From NCBI RefSeq assembly GCF_058153355.1, contig NZ_CM177019.1: a DNA stretch of 64,000 nucleotides; one strand, written 5' to 3'. Shown in pieces: positions 38,971 through 63,939 of the stretch. Every line of letters begins with the position of its first letter. Position 1 is the stretch's first letter. The translations under genes and the position numbers were made by a program. The notes under the pieces were generated by a model. That model was not told the DNA's origin and did not search any database. It worked only from the letters and a program-made list of their open reading frames with translations.

Positions 38971-40404
38971 AAGGGGTAAGCTGAAATCGTTTATGGATTA
39001 CATCGACATATGCCTGGCAGAGAATGTCCGGAATGACGAGGTTATCTTTGCGGAGATTAAGGCAATGGTATACGGGCCGACGTTCCATGCCGCGTTACTA
39101 CATTCAGCCCGGACGTAAAATGCGCCCGTCAAAAAGAACGGTTCGCTTCGAAACTCAGCCAGGATACCACCTCTCCGCCACACCCGAGAAGAAGTTGATA
39201 TGGTGGTTGCCGGACAACAGCGCTCCTGGATTGACTGCTGCATCACTCAACCACGCTGAATATCAAAGGAGAGCGTTACCGGTTAAAAGAGAAACGTAAA
39301 GCTGTGGTGATGACCCAAAACGCAACGCCTGTCAGTGAGGATGAAATGGTGAAAAGCGGACAGCATCAGTAACGGAAGTATCTTAGCGGGTACGAAAATG
39401 GCAGGATCGTGACATTGACAGAATATCTCCTGATCATCCTGAATGACTGCAGTTGCTGTAGAAAAGTAAGCTGTCTCCACCCACGGCACCACTTAACAGG
39501 CATTCCGTAACTTCCCCCAGACTTACTATGACGCATTATCGGTGCACTGAAAACGGGAGAGTGCGCTTAAAACCGCAGACCGCATGCGGGTGTTACTGCA
39601 TGACAGTCTGGCCGTATTGTGAGATGTCGGCAGGAACCGATGTCCGCGCAGGGGGGAACTTCCTGCAGTACCTGACGCTTCAAATGGTATTAACCGTAGG
39701 GTGTTGTTGGTTCCGGATCGCGGAAATGGGAGCACAGGTCTGCTACGGGGTGTACCTCTGACAGTATATCCGGCTCGCTCATCTGACAGCCTCTCTCCCG
39801 GAAAAGACCAAAAATGAGATCGTCTCCTCAACAGCAGAGAAGAGGTCTTGACAGACAGGCTACATTGCATACGATTTATGAAGAAAAAGACAGCAAATAT
39901 GGAGGTTATAGCGGAGAATACCCTACGAAATTCCTATGAAAAACGATTGAAAAAAATATCAAATTCGATTCGTTTTTATATGCTTTTTGGGAGCGTGGCG
40001 ATGACGAACTGTTGCATGTGCAGAGGAGAATGCACCCGGAAGCACCAGAATCATCCAGAAAGGCAGAACGATTACGCATCAAACCAGGAGACAGCAATAT
40101 CAAGGTAATATACTGATTTAAAATGAATTTACAGCAATACGTAAAAACATTTTTTACTTAAAGGAGACAGATGCGCTGAAGAGAGTGCAGGTATTTTTAT
40201 ATAAAAATGAGAAGTTTACGGGATGTATATCCGGCACACTATGACCGGAGAATATCAGTCAAGCTTAAAAAGACAATAAATACAGTGAGTTAAATACACA
40301 GAGAAAACGTAGTATCAGAGGGTACATCTGTAAGCGTCTTATCAGGACCGTCTGGCAAATTCCCGATGCTTTGGACAAAGTATCCACCACTAAATTAATA
40401 GTGG

Positions 40405-40833
40405 GTGATAAAAATGTCAGATATACAAAAAAATGCCTCTCCGGGAAGGCCTAAAGGGTGCCTGAATTATCCTCCTGAATTCAAACAACGACTCATAGAA
40501 GCATCATTCCAGCCAGGTGTTTCAATTTCCAGACTGGCCCTGGACAATGGTATTAATGCCAATCTGTTGTTCAAATGGCGTCAGAAATGGCGGCAGGGGA
40601 AGATAAAATTGCCATCATCAGAATCAGGCAGAGAATCTCAGTTAATTCCTGTCACTATTGATGCCCAACTCCCAACTGCTCCGGCTAATGAGCCACTGAC
40701 CGCAAGACCGTCAGTAACACCGGAAATACACAGCATCTCCTGTGAGATTACGTTCAGAAACGGCACCCTTCGGTTGAACGGGGCAGTGAATGAAAATCTG
40801 CTGTCCTTGCTTATACAGGAGCTGAGACGGTGA
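40405..40833 (+). CDS. IS66 family accessory protein TnpA (Orf1)
   Basis: 142-aa ORF, first gene of the IS66 module. Confidence 0.85.
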   Translation: MIKMSDIQKNASPGRPKGCLNYPPEFKQRLIEASFQPGVSISRLALDNGINANLLFKWRQKWRQGKIKLPSSESGRESQLIPVTIDAQLPTAPANEPLTARPSVTPEIHSISCEITFRNGTLRLNGAVNENLLSLLIQELRR

Positions 40834-41177
40834 TATCTCTCCCTGCAGGTTCGCGTATCTGGCTGGTTGCAGGTATCACCGATATGCGAAATGGCTTTAA
40901 CGGCCTGGCCTCAAAAGTTCAGAACGTCCTGAAGGATGACCCGTTCTCCGGGCATCTGTTCATCTTCCGCGGACGCCGGGGTGACCAGATAAAAGTGTTG
41001 TGGGCTGACAGTGACGGACTGTGCCTCTTCACCAGACGCCTGGAGCGGGGCCGCTTCGTCTGGCCGGTCACCCGTGACGGCAAGGTGCACCTTACTCCGG
41101 CCCAGTTATCCATGCTTCTTGAGGGCATCGACTGGAAACACCCGAAACGAACGGAACGCGCTGGCATCCGCATATAA
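40830..41177 (+). CDS. IS66 family TnpB (Orf2)
   Basis: 115-aa ORF MISLPAGSRIWLVAGITDMRNGFNGL typical of IS66 Orf2. Confidence 0.88.
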   Translation: MISLPAGSRIWLVAGITDMRNGFNGLASKVQNVLKDDPFSGHLFIFRGRRGDQIKVLWADSDGLCLFTRRLERGRFVWPVTRDGKVHLTPAQLSMLLEGIDWKHPKRTERAGIRI

Positions 41178-41196
41178 CCCGTTGTAAAGTGAGGAT

Positions 41197-42768
41197 ATGG
41201 ACACCTCACTTGCTCATGAGAATGCCCGCCTGCGGGCACTGTTGCAGACGCAACAGGACACCATCCGCCAGATGGCGAAATACAACCGCCTGCTCTCACA
41301 GCGGGTGGCGGCTTATGCTTCCGAAATCAACCGGCTGAAGGCGCTGGTTGCAAAACTGCAGCGCATGCAGTTCGGTAAAAGCTCAGAAAAACTTCGTGCA
41401 AAAACCGAACGGCAGATACAGGAAGCACAGGAGCGAATCAGCGCTCTTCAGGAAGAAATGGCGGAAACGCTGGGTGAGCAATATGACCCGGTACTGCCAT
41501 CTCCCCTGCGCCAGTCTTCAGCCCGTAAACCGTTACCTGCCTCACTTCCCCGTGAAACCCGGGTCATCCGTCCGGAAGAGGAATGCTGCCCGGCCTGTGG
41601 TGGCGAACTCAGTTCTCTGGGATGTGATGTGTCAGAGCAACTGGAGCTTATCAGCAGCGCCTTTAAGGTTATCGAAACACAACGTCCGAAACTGGCCTGT
41701 TGCCGGTGCGACCATATCGTGCAGGCTCCGGTGCCTTCAAAACCCATTGCACGCAGTTATGCCGGAGCGGGGCTTCTGGCCCATGTTGTCGCTGGAAAAT
41801 ATGCAGACCATCTGCCGTTATACCGCCAGTCAGAAATATACCGTCGTCAGGGCGTGGAGCTGAGCCGTGCCACACTGGGGCGCTGGACAGGTGCTGTTGC
41901 TGAACTGCTGGAACCGCTGTATGACATCCTGCGCCAGTATGTGCTGATGCCCGGTAAAGTCCATGCCGATGATATCCCCGTTCCGGTCCAGGAGCCGGGC
42001 AGCGGTAAAACAAGGACTGCCCGGCTGTGGGTCTACGTTCGTGATGACCGTAACGCCGGTTCGGAAATGCCTCCGGCGGTCTGGTTCGCGTACAGCCCGG
42101 ACCGGAAAGGTATCCATCCACAGAATCATCTGGCCGGTTACAGCGGAGTGCTTCAGGCCGATGCTTACGGTGGTTACCGGGCGTTGTACGAATCCGGCAG
42201 AATAACGGAAGCCGCATGTATGGCTCATGCCCGGAGAAAAATCCACGATGTGCATGCAAGAGTGCCCACCGACATCACCACGGAAGCCCTGCAGCGTATC
42301 GGTGAACTGTATGCCATCGAGGCAGAGGTCCGGGGCTGTTCAGCAGAACAGCGTCTGGCGGCAAGAAAAGCCAGAGCCGCGCCACTGATGCAGTCACTGT
42401 ATGACTGGATACAGCAACAGATGAAAACACTGTCGCGTCACTCGGACACGGCAAAAGCGTTCGCATACCTGCTGAAACAGTGGGATGCACTGAACGTGTA
42501 CTGCAGTAATGGCTGGGTGGAAATCGACAACAACATCGCAGAGAACGCCTTACGGGGAGTGGCCGTAGGCCGGAAAAACTGGCTCTTCGCGGGTTCTGAC
42601 AGCGGTGGTGAACATGCTGCGGTGTTGTACTCGCTGATCGGCACATGCCGTCTGAACAATGTGGAGCCAGAAAAGTGGCTGCGTTACGTCATTGAACATA
42701 TCCAGGACTGGCCGGCAAACCGGGTACGCGATCTGTTGCCCTGGAAAGTTGATCTGAGCTCTCAGTAA
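41197..42768 (+). CDS. IS66 family transposase TnpC (Orf3)
   Basis: 523-aa ORF with leucine-zipper N-terminus, CxxC zinc motif, DDE domain, C-terminus ...[10 protein letters not shown]. Confidence 0.9.
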
Positions 42769-42967
42769 ATATCAATACGGTTCTGGCGAGCCGCTTACGT
42801 ACATCTTACAACAGAGACTGAATTTCCGGTTTTTCATAACCGGCGCATTCCGGAAAGTGCAGGCGGCCCGGAGGTTTTCTGACGCCACTACCTGGTAGAT
42901 TGTTCTGTACATCATGTACGGAGGTTTTTGTTTGCTTTTTTAAAATCTGCAAATGTGAGAAAAGCAG

Positions 42968-44131
42968 GTGAGGTGTATTGTGGGAAAGGAACTGGATGAT
43001 ATCTGCACCAGCTGTCCGTATATCGATGCTGTAAAACGGCACAAACAACAGCTCGGTGCCATAGAGGAATATACACAGTGGTTAAAAAAAGAACCACGGG
43101 CATCTTATTTTTTTCTGTTCCAGCTGTATACCCGCATTCACAATACATTTTTCTCCCAAAAGCAACAACTCCCGTTCACTCCCGGTGGCACTCACTGCCC
43201 GGAACCTGATGTCACCCTTCGGGACTTAACGCTTTCCCCTGGCTACCACAGTGATTATGCCCCTCAACCCATTCCGGAGATGGACAGTTCTGCTGTTGTT
43301 CCCCCAACTAATGAAAACACCTCGCCTCCGGAAGATACTCCCGACAACACTCCGGCCGGAGGCAATACCGGACAAGCGGAAAAGACCAGAAACGCAGGAC
43401 TCACACCCATTCCTGAAAAACGTTCAGGAATGCCCCCGGAACATCTGCGGTTTGCCACGGGGTTTCCATCGCAACCGAAGATTGCCGGTCCCAGAGAAAA
43501 GCCGATGCGCACCGTGCATCCGGATAAAATCTACCGTGAAATTATATGGTTCTGCTCCAGTTACCTGCTGAAATCCGGACCAGAGGCTACGAGGACGATT
43601 ATCAACTCAGTATTCTCTGAATGGGCCAGCATAAACAATGATTACCCCTCCCCCTTTTCGTGGGTGGACAGCAGGGACAGTGAACAGTGTGACTGGTTAT
43701 GGAACGCCATGCAGGTCCGGTGTGTGGGAACCCCGCTGAATCCCCTTACCCCGGAGCAGAAATACTGGTTTGCCTGCGCCACGTTTGATAACTGGGAGGG
43801 CTGGAATGAGCAACAGGTACAGTTTTTACTGGAAAGTAATCCCAGACGGAACAGAGCGAAGTTTACGCAGGTCTCCTTCCAGGCCCCCAGGATTCAGCAT
43901 AAAGCGATTCTTCTTGATGAGCTGAAAAGTGCCCGGGAGCAACAAAAAAGGCGTGATGAACGTGCTGATGGTTCCGTCCCTCTGAAACTGTCCGGAAAAA
44001 TCCACAAACAGCTTGAAAGTATTGCCCGAAGTCGTGGTGTCCTCCCAAAAAAACTGCTGAATGAAATGATTGAGCAGGCGTACCATGATTTGGTGGCAAC
44101 CAGGCAGAACTGCCAAATCGATTCCAGATAA
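42968..44131 (+). CDS. Hypothetical protein with Pro/Thr-rich linker and C-terminal ribbon-helix-helix-like segment
   Basis: 387-aa ORF; no ATG near the 5' end (GTG start at 42968 or 42980 assumed); low-complexity PPTNENTSPPEDTPDNTPAGG region. Confidence 0.5.
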   Translation: MRCIVGKELDDICTSCPYIDAVKRHKQQLGAIEEYTQWLKKEPRASYFFLFQLYTRIHNTFFSQKQQLPFTPGGTHCPEPDVTLRDLTLSPGYHSDYAPQPIPEMDSSAVVPPTNENTSPPEDTPDNTPAGGNTGQAEKTRNAGLTPIPEKRSGMPPEHLRFATGFPSQPKIAGPREKPMRTVHPDKIYREIIWFCSSYLLKSGPEATRTIINSVFSEWASINNDYPSPFSWVDSRDSEQCDWLWNAMQVRCVGTPLNPLTPEQKYWFACATFDNWEGWNEQQVQFLLESNPRRNRAKFTQVSFQAPRIQHKAILLDELKSAREQQKRRDERADGSVPLKLSGKIHKQLESIARSRGVLPKKLLNEMIEQAYHDLVATRQNCQIDSR

Positions 44132-44159
44132 TTTCAGACAGATATTATTTCCGTGAATC

Positions 44160-44198
44160 CCCCGCCACCTTTCCGGTGCGCGGGGTTTTGTCTTTTTT
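44160..44198 (+). terminator. Rho-independent terminator between the 387-aa ORF and the YeeP-like GTPase gene
   Basis: CCCGCCACC...GGTGCGCGGGG stem followed by GTTTTGTCTTTTTT. Confidence 0.6.
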
Positions 44199-44214
44199 CA
44201 CCGGGAATACATGT

Positions 44215-44874
44215 ATGAATCCGTCTGATGCCATTGAGGCAATTGAAAAACCGCTCTCCTCCCTGCCTTACTCACTTTCCCGTCACATCCTGGAACATCT
44301 GCGCAAACTCACCAGTCACGAACCCGTGCCTGGCATTATGGGTAAAAGCGGGGCCGGTAAATCCTCACTCTGTAATGCGCTGTTTCAGGGGGAGGTCACC
44401 CCGGTCAGTGATGTTCACGCCGGCACCCGGGAAGTGCAGCGCTTCCGTCTGAATGGCCATGGTCACAGCATGGTTATCACTGACCTGCCCGGGGTGGGCG
44501 AGAGCCGGGACAGGGATGCAGAGTATGAAGCCCTGTACCGTGACATTCTGCTCGAACTGGACCTGGTACTGTGGCTGATTAAAGCCGATGACCGTGCCCT
44601 GTCTGTGGATGAGTATTTCTGGCGACACATCCTGCACCGGGGACATCAGCGGGTACTGTTTGTGGTGATGCAGGCCGATAAAACGGAGCCCTGCCATGAA
44701 TGGGATATGGCCGGTATTCAGCCTTCTCCCGCAGAGGCACAGAACATTCGCGAAAAAACGGAGGCGGTATTCCGTCTGTTCCGGCCCGTACATCGGGTTG
44801 TTGCCGTATCGGCCCGCACCGGCTGGGAACTGAACCCGGTGGTGATGTACCAGGCTGTTGTTACAGATTTTTAA
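44215..44874 (+). CDS. Small GTPase of the YeeP/YfjP/YkfA island family
   Basis: Start MNPSDAIEAIE; P-loop GIMGKSGAGKSS, DLPG switch II, QADK-type G4; K-12 has yeeP at the equivalent island position. Confidence 0.8.
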   Translation: MNPSDAIEAIEKPLSSLPYSLSRHILEHLRKLTSHEPVPGIMGKSGAGKSSLCNALFQGEVTPVSDVHAGTREVQRFRLNGHGHSMVITDLPGVGESRDRDAEYEALYRDILLELDLVLWLIKADDRALSVDEYFWRHILHRGHQRVLFVVMQADKTEPCHEWDMAGIQPSPAEAQNIREKTEAVFRLFRPVHRVVAVSARTGWELNPVVMYQAVVTDF

Positions 44875-45050
44875 CTCCATGAAAACACTATGCAAACGCA
44901 GCCATACCCGGGTTGTCCCCTTGCGTTGTGTTTCTCAAGTTAATAGAATACATCAATCGTTACTATCATATCGATCGTTATAAACAATCGTTTGTAGTAA
45001 ATGACCTCCTCCGTGGTTGTCATGAAAATGCGTCTTAGGAAGGTTAAATA

Positions 45051-47447
45051 ATGCACGAAAAGAACATCGCCCTGCTTTGTGATGAAGCCGACCGACTTTT
45101 GCAACTGAACATTAATCTGCTCCGGCAAATGGTTGAGGAGCCAGATGTGTTATCTGACAGTAAGAACGAAAACAGACTGCTTTTTGATAAACAGAAAGCA
45201 CTGAAAAGAATTGAGGAGCTGGAGGGCGAACAAATCAAAACCGCCCGCAGGGAGATGGTGCTGGCTGTTGTCGGCACGATGAAAGCAGGCAAATCAACCA
45301 CCATCAACGCCATTGTGGGGCAGGAAATTCTGCCTAACCGTAACCGCCCCATGACCTCTGTACCGACGCTCATCCGCCACGTTCCCGGAAAAACTGAGCC
45401 GGTTCTCCATCTGGAACATATTCAGCCTGTCCGCAATTTATTAATCACACTGCAGGAAAAACTCGCCACCCCGGCAGGACAGCAGGTCGCACAGACCCTG
45501 CAGCAAACCGGGGATACCCGCGAACTGCTGGATATTCTGACGGATGATGGCTGGCTCAAAAATGAATACCACGGGGAGGAGGAAATCTTTACCGGACTGG
45601 CATCGTTAAACGATCTGGTTCGTCTTGCTGCGGCAATGGGGACTGAATTTCCTTTTGATGAATACGCAGAAGTGCAGAAACTGCCGGTGATCGACGTGGA
45701 ATTCAGCCATCTGGTGGGGATGGATGCATGCCAGGGAACACTCACACTGCTGGATACCCCCGGCCCTAATGAGGCCGGACAACCGCAGATGGAAGTGATG
45801 ATGCGGGATCAACTGCAGAAAGCCTCTGCGGTTCTGGCTGTGATGGATTACACCCAGATGAACTCAAAAGCGGATGAAGACGTCCGTAAAGAGCTTAATG
45901 CCATTGCTGACGTATCAGCCGGCCGCCTGTTTGTACTGGTCAATAAATTTGATGAGAAAGACCGCAATGGCGATGGGGCAGATGCCGTACGCCAGAAAGT
46001 TCCGGCAATGCTGAACAGCGATGTGCTGCCCGCCTCCCGCGTTTATCCCGGATCCTCACGCCAGGCATACCTGGCTAACCGTGCGCTTCATGAGTTACGG
46101 AAAAACGGAACCCTTCCTGTTGATGAAGCCTGGGTCGATGATTTTATCAGAGGTGCCTTCGGTTGCATGAAAAAAGAATACGTCTGTAAAGACAGTGAAC
46201 TGGCAACTGAAGGGGCGACAGACCTGTGGGAAGGCTCACTTATCGATCAACTGATAACGGAAGTCATACAGAGCTCACATTCCAGAGCTGCGGCACTGGC
46301 GGTTGACTCTGCCGCCGCAAAACTGATGCAGAATGCAGAAAATATCAGTGAATACCTGTTGTTACGCCATCAGGGGCTACAGCAAAGCATTCAGTCACTG
46401 CAGTCGCATATCACCAGCCTGCTTGCGGATATCCGGGAAATCGCGGACTGTCAGGAGCAGATGACCACTGATGTCAGAATGGCCATGGAGGAGATCGATA
46501 CTAAAACCCGGGAATTACTGACGGGGGTCTGCACCTCACTGGAAGAGGAGCTGAATGACTATTTCAGAAGCGGTAAACGCAAAGAACAGCAAATGCTGGA
46601 GGAAGAAGACGCAGAACAACGAAGGTCTCAGTCCGGATTATGGGGGAAAATTTCTCAATGGTCCGGTATCAACAACCAGGGCCGGGAGGATTACAGGAAA
46701 CGAGATTTTGCCCCGGACAGCCCCGAAATAAAATTCAGTGATCGCAGGGAAGCCCTTGAACTGATGACGCAAATCGAATCGACCGTGACCAGCCTGCACC
46801 GTGAGGCTGAAGCACAGTTCCGGCCTGAGCTGGAGAAAATCGTCAGCGGGATTGAAACAGGTTTTCGTGGCACGGCCCTGTACGCCACAGAAAACATTGC
46901 CGGTCGCATCAATGCCCGCCTGGAGGATGAGGGCTTTACCGTAAAAATCAGTTTTCCGGCAGTCAGCCAGTTACAGACCCGGCTCGCGGTAAAAATAAAT
47001 CTGAGTGCGCTTATGGAGGAAAGAACGGAGACCGTCACCCGTCGCCGTCGGCAGAGTGGCGTATGGGGAACCGTTTGTCGATGGTTTGGCACCAGTGACC
47101 TGGGCTGGGAAAACTATGACGAGGATGTGAGTCGCAGCGTGATCAATATCAACAAGGTCAGAGAGGAAGTTATGTCACTGACCCGGGCATATTTCGGGGA
47201 GCTGCAGGCATCCATTGAGCAGGATATTAACCAGCCCGTCCGCCAGGAAATCGATGCCTTTTTCTGCGCATTCAGGGAGAAAGTTGAACAACTGCGTAAC
47301 ACGCTGATTCAGAGCTCTGAAGATCATAAACGCGATCAGCAGGCGCAGGAACGGCTTACCGGGCGACTTCAGGCATTAAATGAAAGGGTTCCTGAGCTCA
47401 TTACTGACAGTAAGGCGCTGAGGGAAGAGCTGGAGACAATGCTGTGA
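45051..47447 (+). CDS. Bacterial dynamin-like large GTPase
   Basis: 798-aa ORF; GTPase motifs G1 GTMKAGKST, G3 DTPG, G4 NKFD in the N-terminal third; long helical, coiled-coil-rich C-terminal region; AGGAAGG RBS. Confidence 0.8.
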   Translation: MHEKNIALLCDEADRLLQLNINLLRQMVEEPDVLSDSKNENRLLFDKQKALKRIEELEGEQIKTARREMVLAVVGTMKAGKSTTINAIVGQEILPNRNRPMTSVPTLIRHVPGKTEPVLHLEHIQPVRNLLITLQEKLATPAGQQVAQTLQQTGDTRELLDILTDDGWLKNEYHGEEEIFTGLASLNDLVRLAAAMGTEFPFDEYAEVQKLPVIDVEFSHLVGMDACQGTLTLLDTPGPNEAGQPQMEVMMRDQLQKASAVLAVMDYTQMNSKADEDVRKELNAIADVSAGRLFVLVNKFDEKDRNGDGADAVRQKVPAMLNSDVLPASRVYPGSSRQAYLANRALHELRKNGTLPVDEAWVDDFIRGAFGCMKKEYVCKDSELATEGATDLWEGSLIDQLITEVIQSSHSRAAALAVDSAAAKLMQNAENISEYLLLRHQGLQQSIQSLQSHITSLLADIREIADCQEQMTTDVRMAMEEIDTKTRELLTGVCTSLEEELNDYFRSGKRKEQQMLEEEDAEQRRSQSGLWGKISQWSGINNQGREDYRKRDFAPDSPEIKFSDRREALELMTQIESTVTSLHREAEAQFRPELEKIVSGIETGFRGTALYATENIAGRINARLEDEGFTVKISFPAVSQLQTRLAVKINLSALMEERTETVTRRRRQSGVWGTVCRWFGTSDLGWENYDEDVSRSVININKVREEVMSLTRAYFGELQASIEQDINQPVRQEIDAFFCAFREKVEQLRNTLIQSSEDHKRDQQAQERLTGRLQALNERVPELITDSKALREELETML

Positions 47448-48349
47448 CTTCACCATTTATTCAACAAATTGCTGATAACCGGGTATGTCAGGTACTCACC
47501 TGTCTTCCTGAAAAATTTGTGGTTGATTTCGCAAACGGAATCGATGTTGCACAGGAGCATATCCGCACGGCCGGAGAGAGCACGTTCTTCCGGCGTTTAA
47601 AAGAGGGGCTGACCGGCGAAGGCGCTGCACGGCAGAATGCCATCAATGCGTCGCTTGCACAGGGCGTTGAGGCGTCCCTGCGCTGGCTGACGGAGATGAC
47701 AACGTCACTTGCCACCACAAACTACGCGATTACCCGGGTAAACGACAGGGTCAGTTCACTGGTCAGTGATACAGCCAGGCTGGCGCATTATTCCGCAGAT
47801 ACGCGGGAGCAGTTACTCACCCTGGCCGATCAGGTTCACCATAAACTGAATCATCTTGAAGAAAAACTCCACCGTGTTGACCAGGTTCAGCGGGCGCAGT
47901 TACATCTTGAGCAGATATTCTCATGGTGGAGCGCCGGGCGATATGCGTCATTTTCCCCTGCCGGACGTTGTTATGTGGCACTTGAAGAGCTTCGCTGGGG
48001 CGCGTTTGGTGATGTGATACGTCAGAGCGAAACAGGCCAGGTTAACCAGCTACTGGATATTCTCAGACATAAAGCATTAACGCAGATGGCACAGGAGAGT
48101 GGCGGTAGTGCAACCGTGCGTCTGAACACTCTGGACTGGCTTGGTGGTCAGGGCCGGGAGCAGGCAGATAACGAGTGGCATGACGCGATTAACTGGCTGG
48201 GAGACTGGTGCAGTGAAGAGCAGCATCCGGTGATCTGGTCAACCACGCAGGCTGCAGAACACTTACCGGTTCGCATGCCTCGCCTCTGCTCTGCAGAACG
48301 CCTCTCTGAAAGTATGGTCGATGAAATATTTCAGAAGGGGGCTGCATGA
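47444..48349 (+). CDS. Helical partner protein of the dynamin-like GTPase (no nucleotide-binding motif)
   Basis: 301-aa ORF; start overlaps upstream stop (ATGA) and its stop overlaps the downstream start. Confidence 0.7.
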   Translation: MTSPFIQQIADNRVCQVLTCLPEKFVVDFANGIDVAQEHIRTAGESTFFRRLKEGLTGEGAARQNAINASLAQGVEASLRWLTEMTTSLATTNYAITRVNDRVSSLVSDTARLAHYSADTREQLLTLADQVHHKLNHLEEKLHRVDQVQRAQLHLEQIFSWWSAGRYASFSPAGRCYVALEELRWGAFGDVIRQSETGQVNQLLDILRHKALTQMAQESGGSATVRLNTLDWLGGQGREQADNEWHDAINWLGDWCSEEQHPVIWSTTQAAEHLPVRMPRLCSAERLSESMVDEIFQKGAA

Positions 48350-49416
48350 GTACAGAAATGAAAACGGGGCTGGTGCTGTCCGGTGGCGGGGCGGTGGGCG
48401 CTTATCAGGCGGGAGTGGTTAAGGCACTGGCAGAGTGTGGTACACAGATCAGCATGGTTTCAGGGGCCAGCATTGGCGCATTCAATGGTGCCATTATCGC
48501 GGCCTCTCCCGATCTGTCAGAAGCTGCCGTACGCCTGGAGGCGCTCTGGGATCATCTGGGGAATAATCAGGTGCTGTCGGTAAACAGATTGGTTTACTTT
48601 TCATTGCTGAAAAAATTGTTCCAGGCAATGAACCTCTGCCAGATCCCCGGACGTGCAGGAGCACTGCTTACGACGCTTCTTCGCCATATATCGACAATCA
48701 ACGGGTTTGACAATCTGATGGCTCAGCCGTTGTTGTCAGATGAGCCCCTGACAGCGCTGATGGATCATTATCTTGATACTGATGCTCTGGCAGACGGGCT
48801 ACCGCTGTATGTGTCGCTGTACCCCACAGAAGGGGGCATGCAGGATATTATTGACTGCATTCGTGCTGAACTGGGTGTCGGAACCACGAAAAACGCCGTT
48901 TTTCAGCATATCCAGAGCCTGCCCCGCGGACAGCAGAAAGAGGCTCTGCTTGCGTCAGCCGCGCTGCCCCTGCTGTTCCGTCCCCGTGAGGTTCAGGGGA
49001 CAATGTTCGGTGATGGTGGTATGGGAGGATGGCGAAATATGCAGGGAAATACCCCTGTGACGCCTCTGGTCGATGCCGGATGCAATATGGTGATTGTGAC
49101 GCATCTGAGTGACGGTTCTTTATGGGATCGCCAGGCTTTTCCGGACACCACAATCCTTGAGATCCGTCCCCGGAAAAGGCTGAAATATGCAGGTGATGGT
49201 GGCAACAGCGGCGGTCTGCTCAGTTTTACATCGGCACATACCGACGCCTGGCGTCAGCAGGGCTATGAAGACACGATGCTGGCGATGGAGCATATCCGGA
49301 AACCGCTGGCAGCACGTCAGGCACTGACCCGGTCAGAGGCGGTATTGCAGAAAAGCCTGGATATAACGGAAGAGGCAGATTTGGCACTGAGAAACGCGAT
49401 GGCCCGGATTAAATAA
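48346..49416 (+). CDS. Patatin-like phospholipase
   Basis: 356-aa ORF with oxyanion-hole motif SGGGAVG, nucleophile elbow GASIG (GxSxG) and catalytic DGG (FGDGGMGG). Confidence 0.85.
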   Translation: MSTEMKTGLVLSGGGAVGAYQAGVVKALAECGTQISMVSGASIGAFNGAIIAASPDLSEAAVRLEALWDHLGNNQVLSVNRLVYFSLLKKLFQAMNLCQIPGRAGALLTTLLRHISTINGFDNLMAQPLLSDEPLTALMDHYLDTDALADGLPLYVSLYPTEGGMQDIIDCIRAELGVGTTKNAVFQHIQSLPRGQQKEALLASAALPLLFRPREVQGTMFGDGGMGGWRNMQGNTPVTPLVDAGCNMVIVTHLSDGSLWDRQAFPDTTILEIRPRKRLKYAGDGGNSGGLLSFTSAHTDAWRQQGYEDTMLAMEHIRKPLAARQALTRSEAVLQKSLDITEEADLALRNAMARIK

Positions 49417-61454: not shown

Positions 61455-61530
61455 TGGCTCCTCTGACTGGACTCGAACCAGTGACATACGGATTAACAGT
61501 CCGCCGTTCTACCGACTGAACTACAGAGGA
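61455..61530 (-). tRNA. asnV: tRNA-Asn (GTT anticodon)
   Basis: Minus-strand 76-nt sequence TCCTCTGTAGTTCAGTCGGTAGAACGGCGGACTGTTAATCCGTATGTCACTGGTTCGAGTCCAGTCAGAGGAGCCA. Confidence 0.95.
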
Positions 61531-63863: not shown

Positions 63864-63939
63864 TGGCTCCTCTGACTGGACTCGAACCAGTGACATACGG
63901 ATTAACAGTCCGCCGTTCTACCGACTGAACTACAGAGGA
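63864..63939 (-). tRNA. asnU: tRNA-Asn (GTT anticodon), second copy
   Basis: Same 76-nt minus-strand sequence as 61455-61530. Confidence 0.95.

Follow-up and report, generated by a model that had tools for sequence, protein, structure and literature searches.

MatP, the Ter macrodomain protein (PDB 4d8j, 3vea, 7nyw), packs a four-helix bundle, a ribbon-helix-helix (RHH) domain and a C-terminal coiled coil into about 150 residues, and true MatP proteins carry both the PF06303 (N-terminal) and the PF17414 (C-terminal) domain. Repressors of the CopG/Arc/MetJ type, including the tandem RHH proteins AvtR and TraY, are 45 to 110 amino acids (aa) long and consist mostly of the RHH. RHH proteins are also the usual centromere binders, and ParR, ParG and omega occur with a neighboring NTPase gene and phased upstream repeats. 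The SaPI repressor Stl and the lambdoid immunity repressors are HTH proteins. Integrative islands of the CP4 type are found in most Escherichia coli genomes, often in several copies. Their cargo includes Ag43, the CbtA/CbeA toxin-antitoxin pair and dynamin-like putative defense operons, among others.

Here we analyzed a 383-aa protein, labeled X, encoded in a CP4-type island within a stretch of 64,000 nucleotides (the window; NCBI RefSeq assembly GCF_058153355.1, contig NZ_CM177019.1). MatP was the best, albeit marginal, solved-structure match of X both by sequence profile and by Foldseek (TM 0.15/0.30; E 6.3). Like MatP, X has a helical domain N-terminal to its predicted RHH; however, this domain is larger and does not align, and MatP residues 54/75-128 match only the basic helix and RHH region of X. 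Neither PF06303 nor PF17414 matched X or 25 of its relatives, and X is placed outside the MatP family (the MatP-seeded protein search made for a MatP profile returned near-identical E. coli sequences only). Compared with the CopG/Arc/MetJ-type repressors, X has approximately 330 extra residues and scores below the Pfam RHH thresholds. With ParR, ParG and omega it shares the RHH, predicted in the case of X, a neighboring NTPase gene and, at some homologue loci, phased upstream repeats. However, the neighbor of X is an MMR_HSR1/YeeP-type GTPase and not ParM/ParA, no cognate ParA/ParM NTPase was found, the two genes stand in the opposite order with a terminator between them, and X also occurs without the GTPase. 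Finally, a functional analogy can be drawn to SaPI Stl and the lambdoid immunity repressors, as homologues of X may lie divergent to excision/replication genes, diverge very fast between similar elements and are replaced by other alleles at a fixed slot; X differs from these in its predicted RHH, and no inducer is known.

The gene and its predicted fold

In the open reading frame (ORF) list of the window, the ORF spans 42968..44131 on the + strand and comprises 387 codons when counted from GTG. GTG codons are present at codon 1 (42968) and codon 5 (42980), the first ATG is codon 105, and an in-frame stop at 42956 blocks any 5' extension. The original prediction had stated that no ATG occurs within the first 100 codons and that a GTG must be used. 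Indeed, a non-ATG start is required, as the conserved N-terminal helices (WLKxxPRA motif; pLDDT >90) are encoded 5' of the first ATG. The more likely start is GTG 42980, which is preceded at 6 nt by the Shine-Dalgarno-like sequence AGGTGAGG and is equivalent to the PGAP/RefSeq start of an identical sequence (383 aa; product "hypothetical protein"). A 77%-identical E. coli paralogue likewise keeps the 42980 start as GTG, while the GTG at 42968 is not conserved in frame. Distant homologues have ATG starts behind good Shine-Dalgarno sites. Judged by sequence conservation, the ORF is a real and intact gene rather than a chance ORF, since identical or near-identical copies are annotated as coding sequences in RefSeq, the protein belongs to a 90% cluster of 4,098 members, and full-length homologues exist in other genera. 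The features of the gene and its surroundings are compiled in Table 1.

Table 1. Coordinates of gene X, its predicted domains and its flanking features in the window
Feature	Coordinates	Strand	Details
IS66-family insertion	40330..42798	+	tnpA 40405-40833, tnpB 40830-41177, tnpC 41197-42768
Native upstream region left after the IS insertion	42799..42979	+	83% identical to the upstream region of the paralogue
Coding sequence of X (383 aa)	42980..44131	+	Start GTG 42980; alternative GTG 42968 gives 387 aa
N-terminal helical hairpin, residues 13-63 (predicted)	43016..43168	+	W34/R40 motif WLKKEPRA family-wide; pLDDT 91-95 for residues 21-50
Disordered Pro/Thr/Gly-rich linker, residues 69-175 (predicted)	43184..43504	+	pLDDT ~40; 20 Pro and 11 Thr per 107 residues
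Core helical domain, residues 176-302 (predicted)	43505..43885	+	Invariant W215, W228 (PFSW), W239 (QCxW), D270 (ATFDxW)
Long basic helix, residues 303-330 (predicted)	43886..43969	+	HKxxLLxELxxAxxQQxxR; K308, A318, Q321, R325 conserved
Predicted RHH domain, residues 331-375	43970..44104	+	Strand VPLKL, helix 339-352, Gly turn, helix 356-382
X-GTPase junction/leader	44121..44214	+	Box ATTCCAGATAATTTCAGACAGATATTATTTCCGTGAAT, GC hairpin 44159-44185, T-tract 44186-44198, Shine-Dalgarno region
YeeP/YkfA/YfjP-type small GTPase gene	44215..44874	+	Conserved downstream partner of X

The X gene was detected by megablast in 3,701 of 5,426 complete E. coli genomes, at a median of two and a maximum of seven places per genome, and the members of the 4,098-sequence cluster are named hypothetical or uncharacterized in every source. 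When 1.8 billion representatives were searched exhaustively with HMMER, only 60 proteins were returned, about 20 of which were full-length relatives (18 to 33% identity) from Klebsiella/Enterobacteriaceae, Kosakonia and Vibrio. A genome scan with a narrower alignment yielded only five loci and added Yersinia, Serratia, Kluyvera, Hafnia and Enterobacter. No homologue was found in K-12 CP4-44, CP4-57 or CP4-6 by tblastn and HMM searches. The window protein had zero matches in Pfam and NCBIfam at E<=1 and no usable match in PADLOC or PHROGs, and a profile built from E. coli sequences only matched no PDB sequence. The invariant residues of the family are W215, W228, W239 and D270, while W34, R40, F226, W272, K308, A318, Q321, R325 and L345 are nearly invariant.

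The AlphaFold2 model of X, based on a 25-sequence alignment, had a mean pLDDT of 76.6. In this model, residues 13-63 formed a confident helical hairpin, residues 69-144, within the linker, were disordered, and the helical core extended over residues 181-296. The Pro/Thr-rich stretch pointed out in the original prediction (PPTNENTSPPEDTPDNTPAGG, 43301-43363) belongs to this linker, which is hypervariable between paralogues, yet holds a short conserved PPEHLRFATG (an ANG motif in distant homologues). For the core helical domain, no structural or sequence relative was detected. In alignments with MatP, the long basic helix falls on the helix ahead of the MatP RHH.

An RHH-like C-terminus had also been proposed, on the basis of a segment that we located at 43976-44083 (VPLKLSGKIHKQLESIARSRGVLPKKLLNEMIEQAY), with HHpred-type searches or structure prediction as the suggested check; both profile and model comparisons returned this fold. 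When the C-terminal family profile was compared with PDB sequences, the matches were mainly RHH proteins (MatP three times, CopG twice, Reg576, 56B and MazE7), with marginal E-values of 0.007 to 0.65, and hhalign aligned residues 334-372 with the MatP RHH (E 3e-4). In the monomer model, residues 331-338 form a coil, followed by helices at 339-352 and 356-382. The strand of an RHH forms only in the dimer, and therefore two copies of the C-terminal region were joined by a Gly/Ser linker and folded by AlphaFold2 as one chain with the family alignment. The resulting model showed the strand-helix-helix order twice (E8-12, H14-27 and H31-55 per copy; pLDDT ~80), with just two strands, one per copy, paired as in an RHH ribbon; the ribbon was seen only in this artificially linked two-copy model. 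No curated Pfam RHH model scored above threshold for X or 25 family members, the best sub-threshold matches being RepB-RCR_reg (E 0.02; 4 of 25 members) and RHH_1 (E 0.054; 1 of 25). Overall, the C-terminus of X very probably is an RHH DNA-binding domain, as predicted by profile and model. Going by these sequence and model comparisons, X is best described as a new family in which a known DNA-binding fold is joined to an approximately 300-residue helical domain without a detected relative.

Island context and the junction with the GTPase gene

The window covers the CP4-44 locus (cobU ... yeeA/sbmC) with an island variant larger than that of K-12. Two tRNA-Asn(GTT) genes on the - strand (61455-61530 and 63864-63939) lie near the right window end, consistent with the asn-tRNA region that adjoins the CP4-44 locus. 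The IS66-family element ends 181 bp 5' of the X start and belongs to the context and not to the gene. Copies of an 8-bp target duplication, GTACATCT, border it on both sides (40322-40329 and 42799-42806), and the insertion is further supported by matches in other E. coli genomes that start at 42799 and by strain WCHEC040047, which is collinear over the insertion point. WCHEC040047 instead carries an ISCro1 copy at 44214-44221, right at the GTPase start. The 181 bp of native DNA left upstream of X (42799..42979) yielded no consensus sigma-70 promoter. A terminator-like hairpin with a T-run at 42903-42923, 57 nt 5' of the X start, is kept in the upstream region of the paralogue. Together with the terminator downstream of the gene, this hairpin leaves X bracketed by terminator-like structures.

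Genes of CP4-type islands include a P4-like integrase, AlpA and a YagK/YfjJ Gp2-like Rep, followed later by DUF932, an antirestriction protein, RadC and CbeA/CbtA. Homologues of X were always found in islands with an integrase, AlpA or Gp2-like Rep gene. We compared approximately twenty loci in some fifteen distinct island contexts (Escherichia, Klebsiella, Kosakonia, Yersinia, Serratia, Kluyvera, Hafnia, Vibrio and metagenomes), and across these X adjoins AlpA or the YagK Gp2-like gene, or the integrase in minimal islands. Its position beside alpA, yagK or int was conserved independently of cargo. In loci outside E. coli, the genes upstream of X are alpA, a gene for a 200-aa protein and the YagK/YfjJ Gp2-like gene, in divergent orientation and with an intergenic region of 0.5 to 0.8 kb; the E. 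coli arrangement differs, as alpA there shares the orientation of X at a distance of 7 kb and yagK is also far from X. Five islands with a short form of X lacked the GTPase (one in Vibrio diazotrophicus and four in metagenome/read-archive assemblies), and in these X has yagK or alpA on one side and the integrase or the end of the island on the other, or else lies before DUF932.

At all Enterobacterales loci examined (window, L001-L003, L005-L011, L015-L018, L021, L029), X lies directly 5' of an approximately 290-aa YeeP/YkfA/YfjP-type GTPase gene. The window copy of this gene is 3' truncated: approximately 252 bp are deleted relative to VL7S7 (L001 8035-8285), with the junction near 44830, and the ORF encodes 219 aa compared with 290 aa when intact. 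K-12 CP4-44, CP4-57 and CP4-6 keep the GTPase in the absence of X. What follows the GTPase gene varies: a dynamin-like/RdcB-like/patatin operon in the window (45051-49416), an Ag43 autotransporter in L005, a WYL protein in L008 and DUF932 in L021. The original prediction had offered X either as a dedicated regulator of the downstream system or as an unrelated island protein. Neither option is supported by these observations. As the cargo of the X-GTPase pair varies and X also occurs without the GTPase, X is a gene of the island backbone rather than one tied to the dynamin cargo; judged by synteny and sequence comparison, it is a conserved, fast-evolving core gene of CP4-type islands.

Between X and the GTPase gene, where a terminator hairpin had been noted, there is indeed a strong, bulged, 10-bp, GC-rich hairpin, followed by the T-tract and the GTPase ATG at 44215. 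The junction was compared in the window, L005, L008, L015-L018 and L029. Its box of approximately 40 nt (ATTCCAGATAATTTCAGACAGATATTAT...; ATTCCA(A/G)ATAATTTCAGACAGATATTATcTCC) is near-invariant across genera, while the flanking X sequences are only about 30% identical; the hairpin sequence differs between loci with its folding retained, and the T-tract and Shine-Dalgarno region come next. The 3' part of the box (ATCTCC) is able to pair with GGAG of the GTPase Shine-Dalgarno region, as an anti-SD/SD pair. The leader had no Rfam match, and the box is absent 5' of the X-less K-12 GTPase genes yfjP, ykfA and yeeP. It may serve as an operator, promoter or attenuator, or may mark a recombination junction.

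Other candidate DNA targets lie upstream of X homologues. Helically phased direct repeats of TTTAC(T) were found 80 to 160 bp 5' of homologues in islands of Yersinia, Kluyvera and Hafnia and in one metagenomic island, spaced by 11 to 12 or 21 bp and in some cases by up to 55 bp. In L015 (9809-9890), six copies are located at -156, -145, -134, -122, -101 and -80, while L011 (7878-7917), L017 and L018 have three copies each. The motif density upstream of X homologues was 9.4 per kb, compared to 1.3 per kb elsewhere in the loci. The array is absent upstream of the window X and in L005. These repeats are suggestive as candidate X operators. A motif, AGACAGAT, that seemed common to the junction box and to repeats upstream of the L026 homologue failed to generalize and was discarded.

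Sequence divergence and allele replacement

When E. coli islands were compared with those of Yersinia, Serratia, Kluyvera, Hafnia and Klebsiella, X was 27 to 33% identical, in contrast to 57 to 59% for the GTPase, approximately 74% for AlpA, 58 to 64% for the 200-aa protein and 70 to 73% for DUF932. By this measure, X diverges much faster than the neighboring island genes. Within E. coli, dN/dS between X and its 77%-identical paralogue was 0.37 (N-terminus), 0.40 (core), 0.49 (C-terminus) and 0.77 (linker). The linker dS (0.50) also exceeded that of the rest of the gene (0.08 to 0.25) and was four to six times that of the core and C-terminal parts, while the adjacent GTPase gene was 96.6% identical at the nucleotide level in the same paralogue comparison. 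The high linker dS suggests mosaic recombination or relaxed constraint.

In E. coli MP1 (NZ_CP139039.1), the slot of X is occupied by a gene (L029 16530-17447) for a 305-aa protein that is only 18% identical to X. It is recognized by the family profile (E 1.6e-29) and retains the PFS-W/Y, C-x-W-x-W, FD-x-W and RHH motifs. From 44121 onward, 10 nt before the X stop, the window and MP1 are homologous at the DNA level, at 96 to 97% through the GTPase and dynamin genes. The MP1 slot gene is intact, while the MP1 GTPase gene is frameshifted. This type of allele was present in 1,409 of the 5,426 E. coli genomes. A fixed slot with very different alleles, together with several islands per cell, is a pattern from which we infer a specificity or immunity determinant. 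An insert at residues 273-305 appeared at one stage to track the presence of the GTPase, as it was missing from five short-form loci and present in every long-form locus. This idea was dropped because the MP1 allele is a short form and nevertheless lies upstream of a GTPase gene.

Expression data are available for the same strain. In published RNA-seq of E. coli MP1, the genes of the five-gene cluster SID94_19700-19720 are reported to be the most induced in Kapi1 lysogens (PMC12922286). If the tags of that paper equal the RefSeq SID94_RS tags, RS19700-RS19720 comprise two hypothetical genes, patatin, RdcB-like and dynamin genes, while the GTPase gene (RS19725) and the X slot gene (RS19730) fall outside the induced range.

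Possible roles of X in CP4-type islands

The most likely role of X, to which we give about even odds, is that of an RHH DNA-binding regulator and specificity module that belongs to the island itself and acts on neighboring backbone promoters. X would then be a dimeric RHH protein of the CP4-type island backbone that most likely contacts DNA through its C-terminal 50 residues and the preceding basic helix, while the N-terminal ~300 residues (hairpin, linker and helical core) would receive a partner or a signal. It would autoregulate and control neighboring backbone genes, with the divergent alpA/yagK excision-replication module of less rearranged islands and possibly the GTPase leader as targets, in a manner resembling the control of repB by CopG or that of a satellite master repressor. 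DNA binding, targets and sign of regulation are here all inferred. The predicted RHH fold, the backbone position next to varying cargo, the fast divergence with allele replacement, the up to seven copies per genome, the phased repeats upstream of homologues and the dN/dS values of 0.37 to 0.49 in the folded parts count in favor of this role. Counting against it are the absence of a Pfam RHH match at threshold and of a ribbon outside the linked model; the lack of an upstream repeat array, obvious operator or promoter at the window copy; the alpA of E. coli, which is not divergent from X; and the phased repeats, which could belong to AlpA or an origin instead.

Alternatively, X could serve the YeeP-like GTPase as its DNA-anchoring adaptor or regulator, with the RHH on a repeat array or the junction box and the N-terminus recruiting or stimulating the GTPase. 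The pair would then form a module for partition-like functions or maintenance whose logic parallels that of ParR/ParM, ParG/ParF or TubR/TubZ. Such a role would suit the GTPase gene directly 3' of X at every Enterobacterales locus examined, the near-invariant junction, the 11-bp-phased arrays upstream of homologues, which are reminiscent of parC, and the part RHH proteins play at centromeres. However, five islands have X without any GTPase and K-12 islands have the GTPase without X, the GTPase is of the MMR_HSR1 type and no known cytomotive NTPase, an intrinsic terminator separates the two genes, and X is intact where the GTPase is truncated (window) or frameshifted (MP1); we consider this role unlikely. 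An accessory function at an origin or oriT, as for TraY, TrwA or NikA, in which X would aid the Gp2-like Rep/nickase in rolling-circle replication or mobilization, is quite unlikely. TraY is among the best structural matches of X, but many RHH folds match equally well; and while minimal islands have X divergent from the yagK/Gp2-like gene across 380 to 550 bp of shared intergenic DNA, and RepB-RCR_reg, a family of RCR-plasmid regulators, gives a weak match, X is far from yagK in E. coli and no nick site or origin was identified in support.

We consider it very improbable that X has become a decaying or non-DNA-binding remnant, with an RHH-like tail that serves only dimerization or protein binding and with no function left in a rearranged island. 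The island is full of IS elements, the neighboring GTPase is truncated, no promoter was detected upstream of X, and dN/dS is only moderately below 1; however, the frame is intact in the 4,098-sequence cluster and in homologues across genera, and the conserved residues and confident folding favor a function. The least credible reading, to which we give little chance, makes X a dedicated transcription regulator of the dynamin-like/RdcB-like/patatin operon, for example via the three ATCGTT repeats at 44940-45050. Proximity, a shared strand and a promoter-like site (44940-44969) among these repeats, 5' of the operon, would allow this. Against it, X-GTPase pairs are found with Ag43, WYL or DUF932 in place of the operon, an 18%-identical allele precedes a 96%-identical dynamin operon in MP1, and, under the tag equivalence assumed above, the induced MP1 cluster ends at the dynamin gene.

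If X is the island regulator, its copy in the window may be partly orphaned, since the switch architecture is broken there, with the IS66 element 181 bp upstream, IS100 and pseudogene debris between X and alpA, and a truncated GTPase. A bolder version of the regulator reading, which we think improbable, would make X the immunity or specificity determinant of the commonest E. coli island family. As such it would be a rapidly evolving master repressor of the RHH type, equipped with a large sensor domain, that silences the AlpA/Gp2-like excision-replication module until a signal (e.g., a helper phage) arrives and that is wired to the GTPase in Enterobacterales, and its swappable alleles, 18% identical at the same slot, would define island incompatibility groups. 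CP4-type islands would in that case carry a satellite-like switch built on an RHH protein and a GTPase instead of an HTH repressor.

K-12 is the strain of most E. coli genetics. The loss of X from its CP4-44, CP4-57 and CP4-6 islands is probably why this gene, although present in about two thirds of the complete E. coli genomes, lacks a name, a Pfam family and a literature. With its predicted RHH domain, fixed backbone position and immunity-like allele diversity, X is a concrete, testable candidate for the as yet missing regulator of CP4-type islands.
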